Below are positions 1-6,000 of a stretch of 16,486 nt of DNA, piece by piece. Positions within the stretch are counted from its first letter, which is position 1. Each line of letters opens with the position of its first letter. The DNA lies in assembly GCA_041489155.1 (NCBI GenBank), contig JBGPQP010000018.1, forward strand, positions 1 through 16,486, written 5' to 3'. The position numbers were made by a program. The stretch comes from Candidatus Aenigmatarchaeota archaeon. Its GTDB lineage: Archaea; Aenigmatarchaeota; Aenigmatarchaeia; QMZP01; QMZT01.

Positions 1-3000
1 CAGCCACTCCTCCCACGGTTCCCATTCAAGCCACGGCTCCCACGCCAGCCACTCCTCCCACGGTTCCCATTCAAGCCACGGCTCCCACGCCAGCCACTCC
101 TCCCACGGTTCCCATTCAAGCCACGGCTCCCACTCCTCCCACGCCAGCCACGGCTCCCACGGCTCCCACTCCTCCCACGGTTCCCATTCAAGCCACGGCT
201 CCCACGGCTCCCACTCCTCCCACGGTTCCCATTCAAGCCACGGCTCCCACTCCTCCCACGCCAGCCACGGCTCCCACGGCTCCCACTCCTCCCACGCCAG
301 CCACGGCTCCCACGGCTCCCACGCCTCCCACTCCTCCCACGGAAGTTGCTGGACGTGCCAGTAAATTCTGAGAAATCATAAAAGAAAATATTGCTAAAAG
401 CTTAACTTTAAAAACTAGATTTTTGACCGCAAAAGCTTTAGCACATCGCCACTTTTTTGTAAACCTCGGACAACTTTTGAGCGAATATTTTTCCATCCAC
501 GTTTTTGGAATTGCTTTTAACTCTTCTGCCTATCTCATTGGCCTTTTCAGGATTCTTTACAATCCATTCAAGTCTTTTGGCATAAGCAGCAGTATCCCTA
601 GGTTCAACAACTATAACGTCAATATTGTCTTTTAATGTTGCGAAGGAAGGCTTCCTGTGGGTTTCCTGACTTATCACGACGCATTTACCGAAATAGAAGG
701 CCTCGTATGCCGTGAGCGGGGTGTGCATTTTCACAGGGAAATCAACCTCCGTTGCAATCAGGGCCGTAATGGAATTGTATAATAGCGGCATTGCCCATGG
801 AGGCTGATAGTCCAGGATTTTGGTTTTCTTTTGCAGGCCAAATTTACATAAATAGTGTTGTATGGAATCCCTGCCTGACTCCGGCGCCATGAGCAAAAGA
901 AAATCATTATCCTTTATTTTTGAAAGCGCTCTAAGCAGTTCTATCATGCCTTTGTTTTTTGAAATTTTACCGAAGCAGCCTATTATCGGTACTTTGTCGC
1001 AGGCTCCTATTTTTTTAAGAAAAGCCCTTATTTTTGCGCGGGAGGCATCGTCTTTAATGCTCATGCCAAAATCGCTTAAACATTCTATTTTATCTCTGGG
1101 TATACCCAGATTGAGCATGTCTTCAAGTTTAATTGGATCTAAGATTATCCGGTCGCTCTTTTTCAACATCTCTGTCAGAAGTTTGCTGTAAAGAGGGCTC
1201 CTCAGGAGATAAGTTATGTCGCTGCCCCCGTGCCTGGTGACCAGAGGCTTCCCTGTGATTAGTTTTGAAAAGAAGCCGGCAACTCCGTAGGGAATGAAAT
1301 ATTTGGTGTCTATGAGGTCTATGCTGTTTTCTCCTATGACGTCAACGACCAGATTTACCAGCGTGGAGATTCTTGACTTCACAAGAAGGTCCTTTTCATA
1401 TTCAGGTGCGTGAACCTTCACGTTCCTCGGCTCATAACCCCTCATCTGCTCCTTGTCTAGATTTTCAAGGTAGTTTTCACCCTCCTCGGCATGATTCGTG
1501 ACAATATGTATTTTATGCCCCATTTCACCGAGGGTTCTTGCAAGCCAGTAATTTATACTTGCACTTCCGCCCGTGTGAGGGGGGTATTTGCCTATCATGC
1601 ATATGTTCGGTCTGCCCATAATCTCCTGTTCAATCCAAGTTTTAAAATGTTATCTTTTAAGTCAAGCCTATTTTAAAAACAAGCCGCCCATCAAAGCGCC
1701 TTTGGCCTAGTCGTAGGTGCAAGTATACCCACAGCAACCAGGGTCGCCTTCCCCGCCGCAGTCTTGGGTTTCACCTAAGCACGACACGCAAAGCCCCAAC
1801 TGATAGTCCATAGTAGCGGTGCACTCTTCGCAGCCACCCCAATATTGCCATTTGCAGCAGTAATTACCTCCGCCACAATCACCGTTAGTATTACATTCGC
1901 AATTCCCCAAAGGTTTGTACTCCTCCCAATTCCCTTCGCTCTGGTTTCCGACCTGCTCGCTGGGCGTGTTGGTCACGTTGTTAAGCAGGGCGTTGTAAAC
2001 GTCTATTCTGGAATAATTTGCCCCCTCGTGCTCGATTAAAAAGCCTGTTGCCCTGAGCCTGTAGTTCAAATCCATAGGTTCTAGTGATTCGTTTTCAAGA
2101 ATGAGGGCTGCTGCCCCTGCAACCACAGCGGCTGAAGCGGACGTCCCGCTTCCTATTCTGAACCCGCCCCCAAGCTTTGTTGAGGTTATATTCACGCCTG
2201 GGGCCAGAACATCAAGAAGCGGGTTTATATTATTATCGGGATAAAACGTATCATTCTTGGTGGTTGCAGCAACAGAGGTCACATTCGTTCCGCACGCAGG
2301 AGCGGTCAAATTGCTGCTATGGTCATTACCAGAGGCAGCGACAACAAACATACCCTGTTGAGCGGCGTAATTCGATTCATCCGTGACCAGAACAGCGTCG
2401 CAGTACCCGTCAAAACTCCCGCCGCCAAGGGCAAGCAGCATGACGGAGATTTTATACAAATCCTTGTTCTCGATACAATAATCTATTGCAGCTATTATGT
2501 CCGACTCATAACCTATTCCATCGTTGCCCAAAGCTTTAACCGCAACGATTTTCGCATCCGGTGCGATGCCTGCAACAATCCCTGACACATACGTTCCGTG
2601 TCCGTGGTCATCCATCGGATCAGGGTCATCATTTACGAAATCATAACCGCCGATGTATTTACCCGAAAGGTTCTCATGGTTATAATCGATTCCCGTGTCT
2701 ATAACACAAACAGTCTGGCTTTTACCAGTGAAGCCCAGATCCCACACCAAATCAGCCCCGATTAGCGGGACAGTCTCACCCAGCGTCGAAATTAATTGGT
2801 GATCCACCTGTATTAATTCCACTTCGTTTTCCAAAGAATACATGAGTTTTAAAAGACCATCCCTTTTCAATGTTCCTGAAAGAAAGCTCCCCGATTCACG
2901 TTTCTTCCCGAATTCCCCTTCGCTCAACCCTAACTCTTTGACACCTCCCCTGAACTTTATTATGACCCTGGACTCATCTTTTTTTGAAAATTTATCAATA

Positions 3001-6000
3001 ACCTCCTTGTTGATATATGTTATTCCCTTGGAGCTTGCAATCTCCCCCACATCAACTTTTTCAGCCCCTGGCGCTGCTGTGAAGTAACCTATAATAGCGC
3101 CTCTCAAGAAAACGAGTGCAGATAAAACTATAATTATTAGAATCAAAAGGATTACAAAATAAACCCTCGGCCCAATTTTCTTGGTCATAATGGTCATAAA
3201 ATTCAATACTAATCTAATAATTATTTAAACTAAAACTATAAAAATTTGAAATTATCAACCCTATCAAGCATTCCCCTTTGTCCAATGTTTAAAAATCTTT
3301 CTGTCCCTTTCAGAAAGGATAATTTTTTCAAAAATTGTTTTAATCATCCCATCGAATATCTTGCATCTCATATCTTCCGGGAGTTTCGGGACAATGCTTC
3401 CTTGTGATGTGTATGTGTTCACAGGGCATAGTGCGCAATAAGCAAACCATGGGCATGCATCGCATAATGAGCAAAATTTAGAGGAGATATCAATCATTGA
3501 TGTTATGGTAGGCGATCTGAAAATGTCTTCATATTTGCTTGTTTTCACATTTCCAAGCTTGAATATGTCCAACACTTTCGCTTCATCGCAAGTGAATATG
3601 TCACCTTTATGGTTGTAAAGAAGCTGGCCTATGCCTGCACCGCATGGGGATCTGAAATCGACCATATTACTGCTCTCCTTTCCCAGTATTACGCTGCTCG
3701 CCAGAACTGCCCATACCTCCCTGAATTTCTCTCCGCTCCTGTTTATCTTCAGAACGTAATCAAGGACATTTTTCCAAAATTTCAAATATTCCTCAGCGGT
3801 GTAACCTATCTTCCCCCATGTTTTTTGTGCGAATCCAAGATTATTCATAAACCTAGGCCATACATCACTAAAGCCCAATTTTCTGAATTCATCAACTATC
3901 TCTTTCGGATAATCCAGTGAGTATCTGGTAACCGTTGTGAGCGCATGAAATCGGAAATCATATCCCTTCATCTCTTCCTTCAATCTCTTTATCCAGTAGA
4001 CCACATCCTCATACGAACCCTTCCCTCCTAGGTATTTTCTGTTCTTGTCATGGACCTCTTTCGGTCCGTCTAAGGACGTGCACAAACCTATAGGTATGTG
4101 ATCTTTCAGAAATTTTATGAAATCATCATCCGCATTTGTCAGATTCGTGACAATTGAAAAATTAACTTTTCTGTTCTGCTTTCTTGCGAGTTCTCTTGCA
4201 TAATCAATGACAAATTCCACGATATCAAAATTGAAGGAACAATCCCCACCTTGGAATTCAATAGTGAAGTCTTTGGCGGTGGTTTTGAACATGAAATCTG
4301 CAATTGCTTTTGCCGTGTCCTTGTCCATGTCCCATCCTTTTGCATCAACTGGTTTGGAAAATGAGTGGCAATATACGCATCTCATGTTGCATCTGAAGGT
4401 CGGGACCATTATATGCAAATCAGGGCCGTTGAAAAGGAACCAGTATCTTTTTCTGTAATCTTCCACGACTTGGTTTATGTTATCCTTTGTGACAATTATG
4501 CCATTTTCTTTGAGCGTTTTATACAGATTAGCCTGCTCTTCAATTCTGCCTGTTCTAAAAAGCATATATTCTTTGCTGTTTAGCACGACCCATGCACCAT
4601 GATCCGTGGTTATAAGAATATGTTCATCATCAAATTTGTGAACCCTGTGTTGATTTATAAGATAGTCCTTTTCCGGTTTTTTCAACTCAAAATCTATTCC
4701 ACTATTAACCATCTGGTCACAACCCAGCTCTATTATTCTTTACTTCAGCAAGCAAATAGTTGATGAAGTTATATGTCATCTCTTCGATTCTCAAATCACT
4801 TACCTTAAGATTCAGCGTAACTATCATATTTTCGTCCATTTTTTTAATTCTAATATCCGCGACTTTTCTGAAATCATCCGCAACCTTTCTTATAACACGT
4901 TCAGGGTAGAAATCATATCTGAGCTCAAGTTCAGCTCTTTTTCTTTTTTTGTCTATTTTCAGGTTTCTCATTTTCAGCCTCCTTTGGCGGCGTCCATGGT
5001 TTCGCTATTCCAAGTGGGTCATCGATAACGAAATCTTCTCCTGCTGGTTCGCTCTCTTCCTCGTGTTTTTCGCAAGTTGGACAATATTTCTCTCCGCACT
5101 CTTCGCATAAGATGAGTTCACATCCACATTTTTCGCAATATTCCTCATCCTTTTCAGAGACCTCCTTTTGTAAATTCGTCACCAAAGCCCTTTCTATTAT
5201 TGCCTTTCTCAGAGGCTGGTTTCTTACCGCCTGCACGACATAAACAGCATAGTTTAGAAGTTCATTGTTGAAGTCGTTGCCCAAATTTTCAAGGTTTTCC
5301 GTCTTGCTTTTGGGTTTCATCTGGATGAATATCTTTCCCTGCGGGTTGCCGTCTATCAGTATGTAAGCCCTGTCCAGAAATACATAAGAAGCAGAATAGA
5401 TGATTTCAAGCGGATATATTTTAGAGTTTACTGAAATTGTCAAAAAATTATTCTTCCTGTCGATTTCTATATTCCTCAGCACCCTGTCTTTATTTTTATA
5501 TGAGTTTTTAACCATGAAAACACCTTATTTTTGCGGCCATGCCCGGATTATAAAAATTTGGGTTTAAGATTTAAATACAGAAGCATTTTCAGAATGAGGT
5601 TATGACAAGCGGTTTTTCCTCCACCACTATTGTGTGTTCAGCTTGGGCTACAGGCATGCCCGATCTTTCCTTTAGGACAGGGTAGCTCCTTATCGCTTCT
5701 GCCATCTCAAGCTGGCGCAGCGCGAAAGAAACCTTGAAGGGCGAAAGACCCATTTTTATCATCCAGCGTTTGGCGAACGGCAGGCCCATGTACTCATTGC
5801 CTGCCAGGTCGAGTATATTCCTGGCTTCGGGTAACCTTACCGGCTTAGGCTGCACAAAGGAGAAAATTTCTACCGGTTCGGATTCTTTTACATACCCATT
5901 AGTCTCGCAGACGAAAGGCTCGAGAGCTATTACGTCGCCTTCTTTGAGTTCTTCCCTGGAATCGTTTTTTATGTTGGGGATTGTCGGCTGGCCGTGAATT

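Follow-up and report, generated by a model that had tools for sequence, protein, structure and literature searches.

The repeat that breaks the assembly of this archaeon at the start of the window (the whole stretch of 16,486 nucleotides analyzed here) is a real gene, hxsA, which lies amid genes for putative modifying enzymes and appears to encode a surface protein of more than 50 Ser-His-X units. The 5' end of the window and the end of a second contig of the same genome, C22, are very probably the halves of this one gene, of the HxsA3/HxsA4 type, and we put at about 0.8 the probability that its product is the precursor on which a maturation system of the His-Xaa-Ser (HXS) family acts; the processing and surface steps proposed below are more conditional. 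The archaeal cluster is widespread and related to an anti-phage system of bacteria. Its histidine polymer may serve as a virus barrier, in metal binding or in contact with a host cell.

The repeat array establishes that hxsA is a gene and fixes its reading frame and family. Translation of the plus strand in frame 2 gives 38 Ser-His-Xaa units without interruption at positions 2-343 (18 SHG, 14 SHS and 6 SHA), followed at 344-364 by the C-terminal tail SCWTCQ and the stop codon (362-364), so that the protein ends in GSCWTCQ. TRF places the array at 1-342, built of 9-nt units that are themselves grouped into 117-nt higher-order repeats (2.7 copies, 91% matches). All three plus frames are open, as for any 3n repeat, and frame 2 is identified as the coding frame by three observations. 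Its serine codons are AGC, TCC and TCA in the window, with TCT and AGT also used on C22, and these belong to both the AGY and the TCN families, which no single synonymous step converts into one another. Frame 2 has the fewest unit types, three against six and seven in the other two frames. Finally, its translation scores 68.9 bits against NCBIfam HxsA4 (cut-off 55), a threshold that this C-terminal half passes through its repeats alone (profile positions 53-92). These results bear out an earlier proposal that the repeat is coding. The same ...SHGSCWTCQ end is found in a homologue at a contig end of a relative (G005; loci L015/L019), and Cys-containing tails are common among archaeal hxsA homologues.

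The 5' half lies on the minus strand of C22 (G000:C22 376..2) and translates to 125 residues. A basic leader comes first and a hydrophobic stretch second; AAAHTNSFDISW..HGHH follows, and then 15 His-containing triplets run up to the contig end. The gene starts with a GTG at C22:376, two codons after a stop and with GGTGA 6 nt upstream; the start at C22:268 given in the preliminary description is an internal ATG (Met37), 36 codons downstream, and the 36 residues thereby added form a leader that is conserved across 40 homologues with aligned N-termini. This leader is 38 residues long and basic, with the family motif l-P-k-x-K-K ... F-L-x-x-E-e-G-k-I-s-K. In the same 40 sequences a conserved Gly directly precedes a hydrophobic helix of about 20 residues, which a short linker (HTNSF...GT-TA-HGHH) joins to the repeat. 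Taken alone, the N-terminal half scores below the cut-offs of HxsA4 (46.8 against 55) and HxsA3 (31.3 against 65). The two halves together hold at least 53 Ser-His-(Ser/Gly/Ala) units, 15 on C22 and 38 in the window, with the middle unassembled. In the window repeat one residue in three is His and there are no Lys, Arg or acidic residues; its computed net charge is about +3 at pH 7, with about +28 charges at pH 5.5.

The neighbors of hxsA are HxsB, two HxsD-type proteins, an HxsC-like enzyme, a further radical SAM/SPASM enzyme encoded beside hxsA, and an A24 peptidase, a set that recurs in relatives. The radical SAM/SPASM maturase gene hxsB (3264-4712, minus strand) scores 423.1 bits against TIGR03978 (cut-off 370; aligned over 5-466 of 466), and Cys108, Cys112 and Cys115 of its CxxxCxxC motif, as well as further Cys in the region of the Pfam SPASM match (357-421), are invariant in six homologues. 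An hxsD-like small gene (4717-4971, minus strand; NF038315 HxsD_rel 41.9 bits, cut-off 41) has positional homologues of 41-60% identity in relatives and shares its first 41 nt with the 3' end of hxsD (4931-5515, minus strand). The latter scores 44.5 bits against TIGR03976, below the cut-off of 50; its product comprises an HxsD domain, a Cys-rich zinc-ribbon-like insert and a conserved C-terminal D..I...W motif (alignment A2, 31 sequences), and an AlphaFold2 model (mean pLDDT 82.8) places a strand-strand-helix-strand-strand-helix-helix core at 16-115. The HxsC-like radical SAM enzyme on C22 falls far below the cut-offs of both HxsC4 (168 against 500) and HxsC (111.6 against 267.9); in all 20 aligned orthologues HxsC4 is the best family and HxsC the second, and an alignment of the C22 protein with a canonical HxsC spans almost the full length at 21% identity (E 2e-11). 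The HxsB, HxsC4, HxsC, HxsD and HxsD_rel scores reproduce all those reported before, and HxsB above its cut-off, the HxsD-type and HxsC-like partners and the HxsA4 match of the hxsA translation uphold the assignment of the cluster to the HXS family. Overlooked in the earlier reading was the A24 (prepilin-type) aspartyl peptidase on C22 (2649-3758; Pfam Peptidase_A24 29.6, cut-off 26.5; Arc_PepC 37.8, cut-off 23.4). Both its Asp22 and the Asp85 of its G-D-x-K-L-F motif are kept in every one of 37 homologues.

We propose that the cytoplasmic radical SAM enzymes would modify residues of the repeat or tail while the leader is still attached, and that the A24 peptidase, by analogy with archaeal pilin-like proteins, would then cut off the leader behind the conserved Gly at the membrane. 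The product would remain at the surface of the cell, either anchored through its hydrophobic helix or set free at a later stage, and would display there a long polymer of histidine that becomes charged below about pH 6.5. The conserved leader, Gly and hydrophobic helix together with the linked A24 gene point to pilin-like processing and anchoring in the membrane at least as well as to the release implied when the protein was called secreted. Against A24 processing, a leader of 38 residues would be a long prepilin-type signal, and the sequence VAAA|H behind the helix, an AxA-type site, would fit signal peptidase I instead; profile searches of the window and C22 revealed no pilus ATPase or platform gene.

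The locus is a long-repeat member of a widespread DPANN/CPR variant of HXS. In public genomes taken at one per species we found 146 HxsB relatives and kept the best 80 loci, 65 of which carry archaeal titles, mostly DPANN (Aenigmatarchaeota, Iainarchaeum, Woese-, Nano-, Nanohalo-, Undin- and Micrarchaeota, Altiarchaeales), and 15 bacterial ones; the clade of the window's HxsB is largely small-genome DPANN/CPR, plus some Elusimicrobiota, Aminicenantes and Chloroflexota labels. A His-Xaa-Ser ORF is present in 43 of these best 80 of 146 loci, mostly directly after hxsB; 28 of 44 such ORFs were scanned, and all 28 match HxsA3 and/or HxsA4, 12 of them above the HxsA4 cut-off. Within the same best 80, an A24 gene lies no more than 8 kb from hxsB in 45 of the 65 archaeal-labelled loci, in the order A24-HxsD-HxsB in 27, and, with an archaeal query, in 2 of the 15 bacterial-labelled ones. 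The claim that this is the first archaeal version does not survive these counts: NCBI annotation already uses the name 'His-Xaa-Ser system radical SAM maturase HxsB' for archaeal proteins, a Woesearchaeota chromosome record holds an intact hxsA of 63 units, and curated NCBIfam models exist for HxsA3, HxsA4, HxsC4 and HxsD_rel. A literature search found no published description of the DPANN/CPR variant.

The right-hand border of the low-G+C insert is a type II methionine aminopeptidase gene (MetAP; 5589-6479, minus strand; TIGR00501 329.1 bits, cut-off 222.65), the first conserved housekeeping gene and outside the HXS system. Here G+C steps from 0.34-0.40 to 0.48-0.53, and the order MetK-MetAP-Lhr-FtsY is kept in same-genus genomes without HxsB. 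Of 41 genomes of the order, 7 have an HxsB above the cut-off, and the four other genomes of the genus have none; a low-G+C insert beside MetAP that is missing from same-genus genomes marks the locus as an accessory trait. The membrane-anchored subtilisin gene (S8; 1707-3206, minus strand; Pfam Peptidase_S8 128.9) encodes an N-terminal hydrophobic helix and a Cys-rich C-terminal tail (13 Cys among the last 90 residues). It is possibly a resident gene rather than part of HXS, since an S8 gene directly follows MetAP in three of the four other same-genus genomes, all without HxsB; its G+C is 0.469, against 0.395 for hxsB. The GT4-family glycosyltransferase gene (438-1619, minus strand; Pfam Glycos_transf_1 56.5, Glyco_transf_4 33.0) is convergent with hxsA and has a homologue of 63% identity in the same position in G005; its link to the system is uncertain. 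Among the 65 archaeal-labelled loci (best 80 of 146), only 2 have an S8 homologue near HxsB, 4 a GT4 homologue and 6 a B12-radical-SAM homologue, and these low counts speak against the extra tailoring genes once proposed.

As to function, it is possible, if doubtful, that the archaeal cluster provides a defense like that of E. coli HXS and that matured poly(His-Xaa-Ser) outside the membrane stops incoming viral DNA. According to PMC13128918, HXS in E. coli keeps phage DNA from entering the cell and depends on each of the HxS repeats. The presence of HxsB above a curated cut-off with HxsD- and HxsC-like partners, the patchy distribution of the insert, typical of defense genes, and the charge of the repeat at pH 5.5 agree with such a role. 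However, the repeat lacks the Arg of canonical ones and has a net charge of only about +3 at pH 7, the assembled halves have no peptidoglycan anchor, the enzymes are distant from their canonical counterparts, PADLOC, whose matches were all generic (radical SAM, subtilase, Lhr helicase), found no known defense system beside the cluster, and PMC13128918 has 0 occurrences of archaea in its text.

Less likely, the product is a histidine-rich surface polymer that captures, stores or buffers Ni, Zn, Cu or Fe. Histidine-rich repeats chelate divalent metals, and at least 53 His, at every third residue and free of acidic or basic neighbors, a tail with Cys (CWTC) and the presence of the organism in sediment metagenomes are all in keeping with this. 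Such a role would leave four or more radical SAM enzymes and the conserved leader unexplained, profile searches of the window and C22 showed no metal transporter, metallochaperone or metal-dependent regulator, and the sole family member with a tested function is anti-phage (PMC13128918). It is improbable that the product is instead a pilin-like subunit or adhesin whose A24-cut hydrophobic N-terminus assembles into, or caps, a host-contact fiber of an episymbiotic archaeon. The linkage of A24 to hxsB with both catalytic Asp invariant, the Gly before the helix and the largely small-genome clade favor it, but neither an assembly ATPase nor a platform protein was found in the window or C22, the leader far exceeds the usual length, a disordered repeat differs from a pilin globular domain, and with the archaeal query most of the bacterial-labelled loci (13 of 15) showed no A24.

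A single gene split between contigs underlies the precursor reading. Across the 39 contigs of the genome, runs of four or more SHx units occur only at the window start and the C22 end, and the one leader-type N-terminus is on C22; likewise the genome has a single C-terminus of this kind. The in-frame suffix-prefix overlap of the two ends is only 8 nt and their longest common string 32 nt, so the middle is truly unassembled; Logan contigs end at C22:279 and C22:203, before the repeat. Four sediment runs from four studies, one possibly the source of this genome, match window 344-4712, and all contain C22 at 99% or more (bins 30/30, 30/30, 24/30 and 20/30). Genes split here are together elsewhere: one G035 contig carries HxsC-like ... 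HxsB-A24-HxsD-hxsA, with the hxsA N-half reaching the contig end, and one G005 contig carries A24-HxsD-HxsD_rel-HxsB-S8-GT4 and then the convergent hxsA C-half. It is thus very improbable that the halves are unrelated, through mis-binning of C22 or as two hxsA genes each missing its other half, even though the join is not directly observed, the higher-order period is 36 nt on C22 against 117 nt in the window, tandem hxsA pairs at three other loci (L076, L081, L093) allow for two genes, and C22 has a G+C of 0.395 against about 0.50 for the genome. The low G+C of C22 matches that of hxsB and hxsD in the window (0.34-0.40), which are physically joined to housekeeping genes of 0.48-0.53. Taken together, the coding repeat, single gene, HXS family, repeat number and missing peptidoglycan domain of the preliminary description stand, and its first archaeal, tailoring and secreted elements are not supported.

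Set against the known systems, the window HxsB, aligned over 97% of its length, shares 32% identity with an annotated canonical HxsB, and the C22 HxsC-like enzyme is 21% identical to canonical HxsC. Domain searches of the assembled hxsA halves showed no peptidoglycan-binding domain. Annotated Aeromonas HxsA repeats carry Arg (HRSHRSHSSHRSH), whereas the window repeat has neither Lys nor Arg; PMC13128918 describes repeats enriched in basic residues, to which DNA binding is ascribed. The E. coli effector described there has five repeats, and the archaeal protein, with at least 53, has about ten times as many.

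The left end of the window is occupied by a repeat array. Tandem Repeats Finder puts it at positions 1-342 and detects a superimposed longer period of 117 nt (2.7 copies, 91% matches). In frame 2 of the + strand, positions 2-343 translate into 38 unbroken Ser-His-Xaa units (18 SHG, 14 SHS and 6 SHA), followed by the tail SCWTCQ and a stop codon at 362-364. All three + frames of the array are open, as expected for a repeat with a period of 3n. The serine codons (AGC, TCC and TCA in the window array, with TCT and AGT in addition on C22, a second contig of the same genome) belong to families that cannot interchange by single synonymous changes, which argues that frame 2 is coding; this frame also has the fewest kinds of unit (three, against six and seven in the other frames), and its translation, the C-terminal half of HxsA, passes the NCBIfam HxsA4 model at 68.9 bits against a cut-off of 55, with a match on the repeats only. 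A non-coding or antisense-coded repeat is ruled out by the codon families, the unit kinds and the HxsA4 score, together with the conserved leader of the N-terminal half. The long Ser-His-Xaa coding repeat proposed in the preliminary description is thus borne out, with 38 units in the window and a further 15 on C22. The repeat is devoid of Lys, Arg, Asp and Glu, and its computed charge is about +3 at pH 7 and +28 at pH 5.5. The unique 37-nt tail of hxsA has no exact match in JGI metagenome contigs, so no assembled version of exactly this gene was found. A scan of positions 300-560 for terminators and promoters was empty; it looks for bacterial signals of the sigma-70 type and so says little about archaeal DNA. 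No RNA is listed among the 13 sequencing runs.

Within the genome (1.13 Mb in 39 contigs) the only other site with such repeats is the end of C22 (9,936 nt, G+C 0.395). Here the minus strand, positions 376..2, encodes 125 residues and is open at the contig end. The product consists of a basic 38-residue leader, a hydrophobic segment at residues 39-59 that forms the hydropathy maximum, the linker HTNSFDISWSSGTITAKHGHH and the 15 His-containing triplets. The protein had been described as starting at C22:268; this is an internal ATG (Met37), and the frame opens at a GTG at C22:376, two codons past a stop and with GGTGA six bases upstream, which adds 36 residues. The leader motif, l-P-k-x-K-K-x-i-x-x-F-L-x-x-E-e-G-k-I-s-K followed by six residues and Gly, is kept in 40 aligned archaeal and bacterial N-termini, an alignment from which 5'-open ORFs and one 487-residue fusion-like ORF were excluded. 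The Gly lies immediately before the hydrophobic helix in at least 80% of the 40 sequences, and an AxA site follows the helix. The excluded 487-residue ORF (locus L034, 15165-16625, minus strand) has the HxsA leader, the helix and 11 units, then a long non-repeat C-terminal domain, and represents a fused or extended version of the precursor. As a partial protein, the N-terminal half scores below both variant models (HxsA3, 31.3 against a cut-off of 65, over profile positions 2-81 of 81; HxsA4, 46.8 against 55). The canonical HxsA model TIGR03979 matches neither the C-terminal half (at E ≤0.01) nor the N-terminal half on C22 (at E ≤0.001). Residues 1-82 have no homologue among longer proteins, and one at similar length, a 115-aa partial Aenigmarchaeota protein with 64% identity. 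The preliminary description had noted the lack of a peptidoglycan anchor, and this agrees with our scan, in which neither assembled half, the middle of the gene being unassembled, carries a peptidoglycan-binding or other Pfam domain.

We estimate the probability that the two halves form a single hxsA gene at about 0.9. The contig ends share an 8-nt in-frame overlap and a longest common string of 32 nt, and the join itself is unobserved; Logan contigs end at C22:279 and C22:203, none of them reaching into the repeat. The genome holds a single N-terminus and a single C-terminus of this kind, and the genes that flank the two halves occur together in relatives. One contig of the relative G035 carries an HxsC-like gene and then HxsB-A24-HxsD-hxsA, with the N-terminal half running off the end, and one contig of G005 carries A24-HxsD-HxsD_rel-HxsB-S8-GT4 and then a convergent hxsA C-terminal half ending in the identical GSCWTCQ (A24, prepilin-type aspartyl peptidase; S8, subtilisin). 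The two contigs also agree in base composition, with a G+C of 0.395 for hxsB, 0.337 for hxsD_rel, 0.397 for hxsD and 0.395 for C22, against 0.48-0.53 for the adjoining housekeeping genes. Since the low-G+C genes of the window are physically joined to these housekeeping genes, the low G+C marks an insert rather than a binning error. Finally, all four sediment runs found with window positions 344-4712, which come from four studies, one of them possibly the source, hold C22 at ≥99% (30, 30, 24 and 20 of 30 bins). The split-gene reading of the preliminary description therefore stands on the gene sets of relatives, the G+C content and the sediment runs. The alternative, that the ends belong to two hxsA genes with an unassembled middle, is improbable. 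Three other loci do hold tandem hxsA genes, and the higher-order repeat unit differs between the ends (36 nt on C22, 117 nt in the window); both points have to be set beside the single pair of termini in this genome. In the tandem paralogues (L076, 5590-6078 and 7085-7549; L081, 9532-9912 and 9997-10353; L093, 9409-9717 and 10302-10607) the leaders and repeats are near-identical and the Cys-rich or His-rich tails differ.

The genes around both halves support the assignment to the HXS families made in the preliminary description. HxsB (3264-4712, minus strand) scores 423.1 against the TIGR03978 cut-off of 370, aligns over profile positions 5-466 of 466, and has the CxxxCxxC motif and further downstream Cys residues invariant. 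An identical HxsB (P0005) is recorded on a 117,519-nt contig of another public assembly. The HxsD-like gene hxsD_rel (4717-4971, minus strand) is barely over its cut-off (NF038315, 41.9 against 41), and HxsD (4931-5515, minus strand) is under its own (TIGR03976, 44.5 against 50). On C22, diverging from hxsA, lie a radical SAM/SPASM enzyme (458-1615), an HxsC-like radical SAM enzyme (1723-2652), and three B12-radical-SAM genes with a GT2 gene. The HxsC-like enzyme is under both curated cut-offs (HxsC4, 168 against 500; HxsC, 111.6 against 267.9), yet these are its two best families, as they are the top families for all 20 aligned HxsC-like orthologues.

HxsD gave no significant BLASTP match to annotated canonical HxsD, which has only 96 residues. 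Its structure model (pLDDT 82.8) matched nothing in the PDB at E ≤0.001 with Foldseek, the best rows being Rpb11-like subunits at E 0.01 and weak CesT/ExsC chaperone rows, and the fold search showed no sign of a PqqD-like recognition element. The protein has a Cys-rich, zinc-ribbon-like insert at about residues 122-156, with a weak Zn_Tnp_IS91 match (20 bits), and, at residues 166-174, a C-terminal motif (D166, I170, W174) that 31 homologues keep almost without change. A complex prediction for the HxsC-like enzyme (A3) with HxsD residues 1-125 (A2) returned 0.00 against a mark of 0.32, a result that counts as no answer and as evidence neither way.

One further gene on C22 had gone unnamed in the preliminary description. 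Located at 2649-3758 (+ strand), with the HxsC-like gene on one side and the first of the B12-radical-SAM genes on the other, it encodes a 369-residue membrane protein that exceeds the Pfam cut-offs for Peptidase_A24 (29.6 against 26.5) and for Arc_PepC, the C-terminal domain of archaeal A24 enzymes (37.8 against 23.4), and is by these matches a type IV prepilin-type peptidase. Its catalytic Asp22 and Asp85, the latter in G-D-x-K-L-F, are invariant in 37 of 37 homologues. NCBIfam and Pfam searches detected no pilus or archaellum assembly ATPase or platform gene in window 1-6479 or among the C22 proteins.

The Hxs genes of the window form part of an accessory insert beside the methionine aminopeptidase gene MetAP (5589-6479, minus strand; TIGR00501, 329.1 against 222.65), next to which lies MetK (6546-7706, minus strand), named from its sequence and the conserved gene order. 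Three genomes of the same genus that lack HxsB (G003, G004 and G001) retain the order S2/L18 ... FtsY-Lhr-XRE-MetK-MetAP, and in all three MetAP is directly followed by a large S8-domain protein of 1,175, 1,782 and at least 1,455 residues, the third ORF running off its contig end. The giant protein, which begins MHKKVIRDTVYYY, occupies the place of the window's Hxs genes. In the window the low-G+C hxsD, hxsD_rel and hxsB lie between MetAP and a 499-residue S8 gene (1707-3206, minus strand; Pfam Peptidase_S8), which encodes a membrane-anchored subtilisin with a Cys-rich tail, has a host-like G+C of 0.469 and is 47-57% identical to the S8 domains of the giant proteins. Position, G+C and identity suggest that the subtilisin may be a resident gene beside which the system landed; even so, two relatives from other genera likewise have S8 after hxsB. 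The subtilisin, the GT4 glycosyltransferase (438-1619, minus strand; Pfam Glycos_transf_1 and Glyco_transf_4) and the B12-radical-SAM enzymes had been read as extra tailoring genes. For most of them this is probably wrong: homologues occur at only 2, 4 and 6, respectively, of the 65 archaeal-labelled loci among the best 80 of 146 HxsB relatives, though these counts are lower bounds, many of the loci being short contigs. PADLOC returned generic matches only: pVip for the radical SAM enzymes, subtilase for S8 and BrxHI for the Lhr helicase. This helicase, a 945-residue protein (8407-11244, + strand; 305.8 bits against BrxHI), looks like a housekeeping Lhr and not part of a BREX system, because it sits between XRE-CBS and FtsY in same-genus genomes too. 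At the far end of the window, 15554-16486 (+ strand) holds an open-ended repeat-protein gene that by eye resembles the PQQ-like or beta-propeller type and was named by no family scan.

The system was described as the first archaeal version of HXS, a claim that does not survive a wider survey. Among 41 genomes of the window's order, 7 have an HxsB that passes the cut-off, and the four other genomes of the window's genus have none; at E ≤1e-60 the protein matches 2,424 proteins. NCBI already uses the name 'His-Xaa-Ser system radical SAM maturase HxsB' for proteins from Aenigmarchaeota, Iainarchaeum, Altiarchaeota and Diapherotrites MAGs. A scan with the HxsB alignment over one genome per prokaryotic species gave 146 relatives, of which the best 80 were kept; the counts that follow refer to these 80 loci, 65 with archaeal and 15 with bacterial titles. 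Among the archaeal titles Aenigmatarchaeota are closest (68-85% identity), the others being Iainarchaeum, Woese-, Nano-, Nanohalo-, Undin- and Micrarchaeota, Altiarchaeales and some labelled Methanosarcinales; the bacterial titles are CPR groups, Elusimicrobia, Aminicenantes and Chloroflexota. A His-Xaa-Ser ORF is present at 43 of the 80 loci, mostly immediately after hxsB. All 28 ORFs scanned, out of 44, match HxsA3 and/or HxsA4; 12 of them (3 archaeal-labelled, 9 bacterial-labelled) pass the HxsA4 cut-off and none passes that of HxsA3. Of the 65 archaeal-labelled loci, 50 have an HxsD homologue, 45 an A24 gene no more than 8 kb from hxsB (arranged A24-HxsD-HxsB in 27) and 20 a close HxsC-like orthologue, counts that are lower bounds because many loci are short contigs. 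In a quick FastTree topology of 77 HxsB sequences rooted on the canonical one, most of the CPR/Elusimicrobia sequences, which make up 11 of the 14 bacterial-labelled sequences included, branch first, and the archaeal-labelled ones form one large group with the three remaining bacterial-labelled sequences at its base or inside.

Array length varies widely across these loci, with 2 to 63 units (median 7.5) in 34 complete ORFs. The 63-unit hxsA is complete within a Woesearchaeota record of 1.84 Mb that bears the title 'chromosome: 1', and a Saccharibacteria hxsA has 41, so that the window gene, with at least 53 units, is at the long end of the range but not unique. Nine of the 44 public-locus ORFs run off their contigs; His-Xaa-Ser repeats regularly break short-read assemblies, and gene callers may choose the wrong strand of them. 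At many loci (L046, L048, L058, L083, L091 and others) runs of 4-9 small HxsC-like radical SAM paralogues lie beside hxsB, and two or more are present at 25 of 65 archaeal-labelled and 8 of 15 bacterial-labelled loci; our genome has a single HxsC-like enzyme plus the SPASM enzyme. At the Aminicenantes-labelled locus L043 (8001-10014) 471 query residues of HxsB are spread over 2,014 nt, which suggests an insertion of about 200 residues.

Taken together, these data show a second, large HXS branch, carried by DPANN archaea and CPR bacteria. Its effector is built differently, it has a putative leader peptidase of its own, and its arrays run from 2 to at least 63 units. The gene set and its conservation suggest how such a system could work. 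The leader would serve as a handle for cytoplasmic maturases; HxsB, the HxsC-like enzyme, HxsD and the extra SPASM enzyme would modify residues of the repeat or the tail; and A24, at the membrane, would then cut the leader off behind the conserved Gly. The hydrophobic helix could anchor the polymer outside the cell in place of the bacterial peptidoglycan anchor, or the polymer may be released at the VAAA|H site.

For the polymer itself, a function other than barrier, metal binding or adhesion is somewhat short of an even chance. An anti-virus barrier, proposed by analogy with E. coli, is a tentative reading and on balance doubtful; in the E. coli study (Li et al., Nat Commun 2026, PMC13128918), periplasmic HxsA is reported to bind DNA, and both the block to viral DNA entry and the radical-SAM-dependent maturation of HxsA are known solely from that organism. 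Metal binding by the polymer is unlikely, and a pilin-like adhesin, for which the A24 gene could speak, very much so. We would also give rather long odds to a fuller picture that joins these elements: a distinct DPANN/CPR branch in which an A24-processed, helix-anchored poly(Ser-His-Xaa) brush on a wall-less cell, fast-changing in length (from a few to more than 60 units) and polycationic only at low pH, would gate viral DNA or contact the host. Were it correct, RiPP chemistry, pilin-type export and surface defence would be combined in one system, of which we found no description in the literature. To our knowledge, the defence repertoire of ultra-small symbionts is not well known, and if the branch is anti-viral it offers them a rare candidate surface defence; if it is not, His-Xaa-Ser maturation chemistry serves other surface functions.

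Comparison with known systems places the cluster more closely. PibD, FlaK and EppA are A24 peptidases that cut the class III signal peptides of archaeal pilin-like proteins. The hxsA cluster resembles such systems in having an A24 enzyme with two invariant Asp residues and the archaeal C-terminal domain, and a substrate with a basic N-terminal leader, a conserved Gly and a hydrophobic helix. It differs in that the leader, at about 38 residues, is strongly conserved itself and looks like a recognition leader for maturases, in the lack of a nearby assembly ATPase or platform, and in a protein body that is a repeat polymer. The resemblance to radical SAM/SPASM RiPPs lies in the next-best families of HxsB (PapB, nif11-peptide, QhpD and SCIFF maturases), in the leader-plus-core layout of ranthipeptides and SCIFF peptides, and in Cys beside the repeats; the hxsA substrate, however, is a long repeat protein with a membrane helix and not a short peptide.

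The HXS system studied to date is only the four-gene proteobacterial one. According to the E. coli paper (Li et al., Nat Commun 2026, PMC13128918; models TIGR03976-03979), the canonical order is hxsD-hxsB-hxsC-hxsA; HxsA has five repeats 'enriched in basic residues', HxsB, HxsC and HxsD are needed both for its cleavage and for one SHRSS motif to change in mass by +8 Da, and HxsC and HxsD form a complex. Its survey covers bacteria only, with 99.7% of systems in Pseudomonadota. The word 'archaea' has no occurrence in that text and one, in a superfamily statistic, in PMC9062424, and literature titles and abstract openings yielded no published description of an archaeal form. An annotated Aeromonas salmonicida plasmid locus (L102) has the same order, and its 192-residue HxsA comprises a short signal peptide, HRSHRSHSSHRSHSSHRSH with about 7 units, and a peptidoglycan-binding-type C-terminus. 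The window cluster shares with the canonical system an HxsB over the curated cut-off (32% identical to the Aeromonas protein), a small gene of probable HxsD type immediately before hxsB, a further radical SAM enzyme on C22 that is smaller and belongs to the HxsC lineage (21% identity to annotated HxsC, E 2e-11, nearly full length including the C-terminal Cys motif), a substrate with an N-terminal export signal and tandem His-Xaa-Ser units, and a location on mobile or accessory DNA. In contrast to it, the array has at least 53 units rather than five (E. coli) or about seven (Aeromonas), and Xaa is Ser, Gly or Ala, never Arg; where canonical HxsA has a peptidoglycan-binding domain, the assembled halves have a hydrophobic helix and a Cys tail along with the long, conserved leader; HxsC-like and HxsD stay below the curated cut-offs; the gene set is larger by a dedicated A24, another HxsD-like gene and one more radical SAM/SPASM enzyme; and the genes, in a DPANN host, are not in a single D-B-C-A operon.

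The variant families modelled by NCBIfam (HxsA3 NF038309, HxsA4 NF038313, HxsC4 NF038332 and HxsD_rel NF038315), for which we found no functional study in the literature, offer a further comparison. Unlike them, the cluster has an N-terminal half under both HxsA cut-offs and an HxsC-like enzyme at 168 against 500; the archaeal proteins carry an extra HTNS...GT-TA-H-H linker and Cys tails, whereas many bacterial variant proteins end in Trp or Tyr; and linkage to A24 is mainly archaeal (45 of 65 archaeal-labelled against 2 of 15 bacterial-labelled loci among the best 80 of 146, as counted with an archaeal A24 query). Like them, its C-terminal half passes HxsA4 (on the repeats), its HxsD_rel passes, and HxsC4 is the best family of its HxsC-like enzyme. 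The CPR and Elusimicrobia proteins that pass HxsA4 over their full length have the leader motif of this hxsA and its pure SH(G/S/A) repeat as well. The window system is a long-repeat member of a DPANN/CPR HXS variant already modelled by curators.
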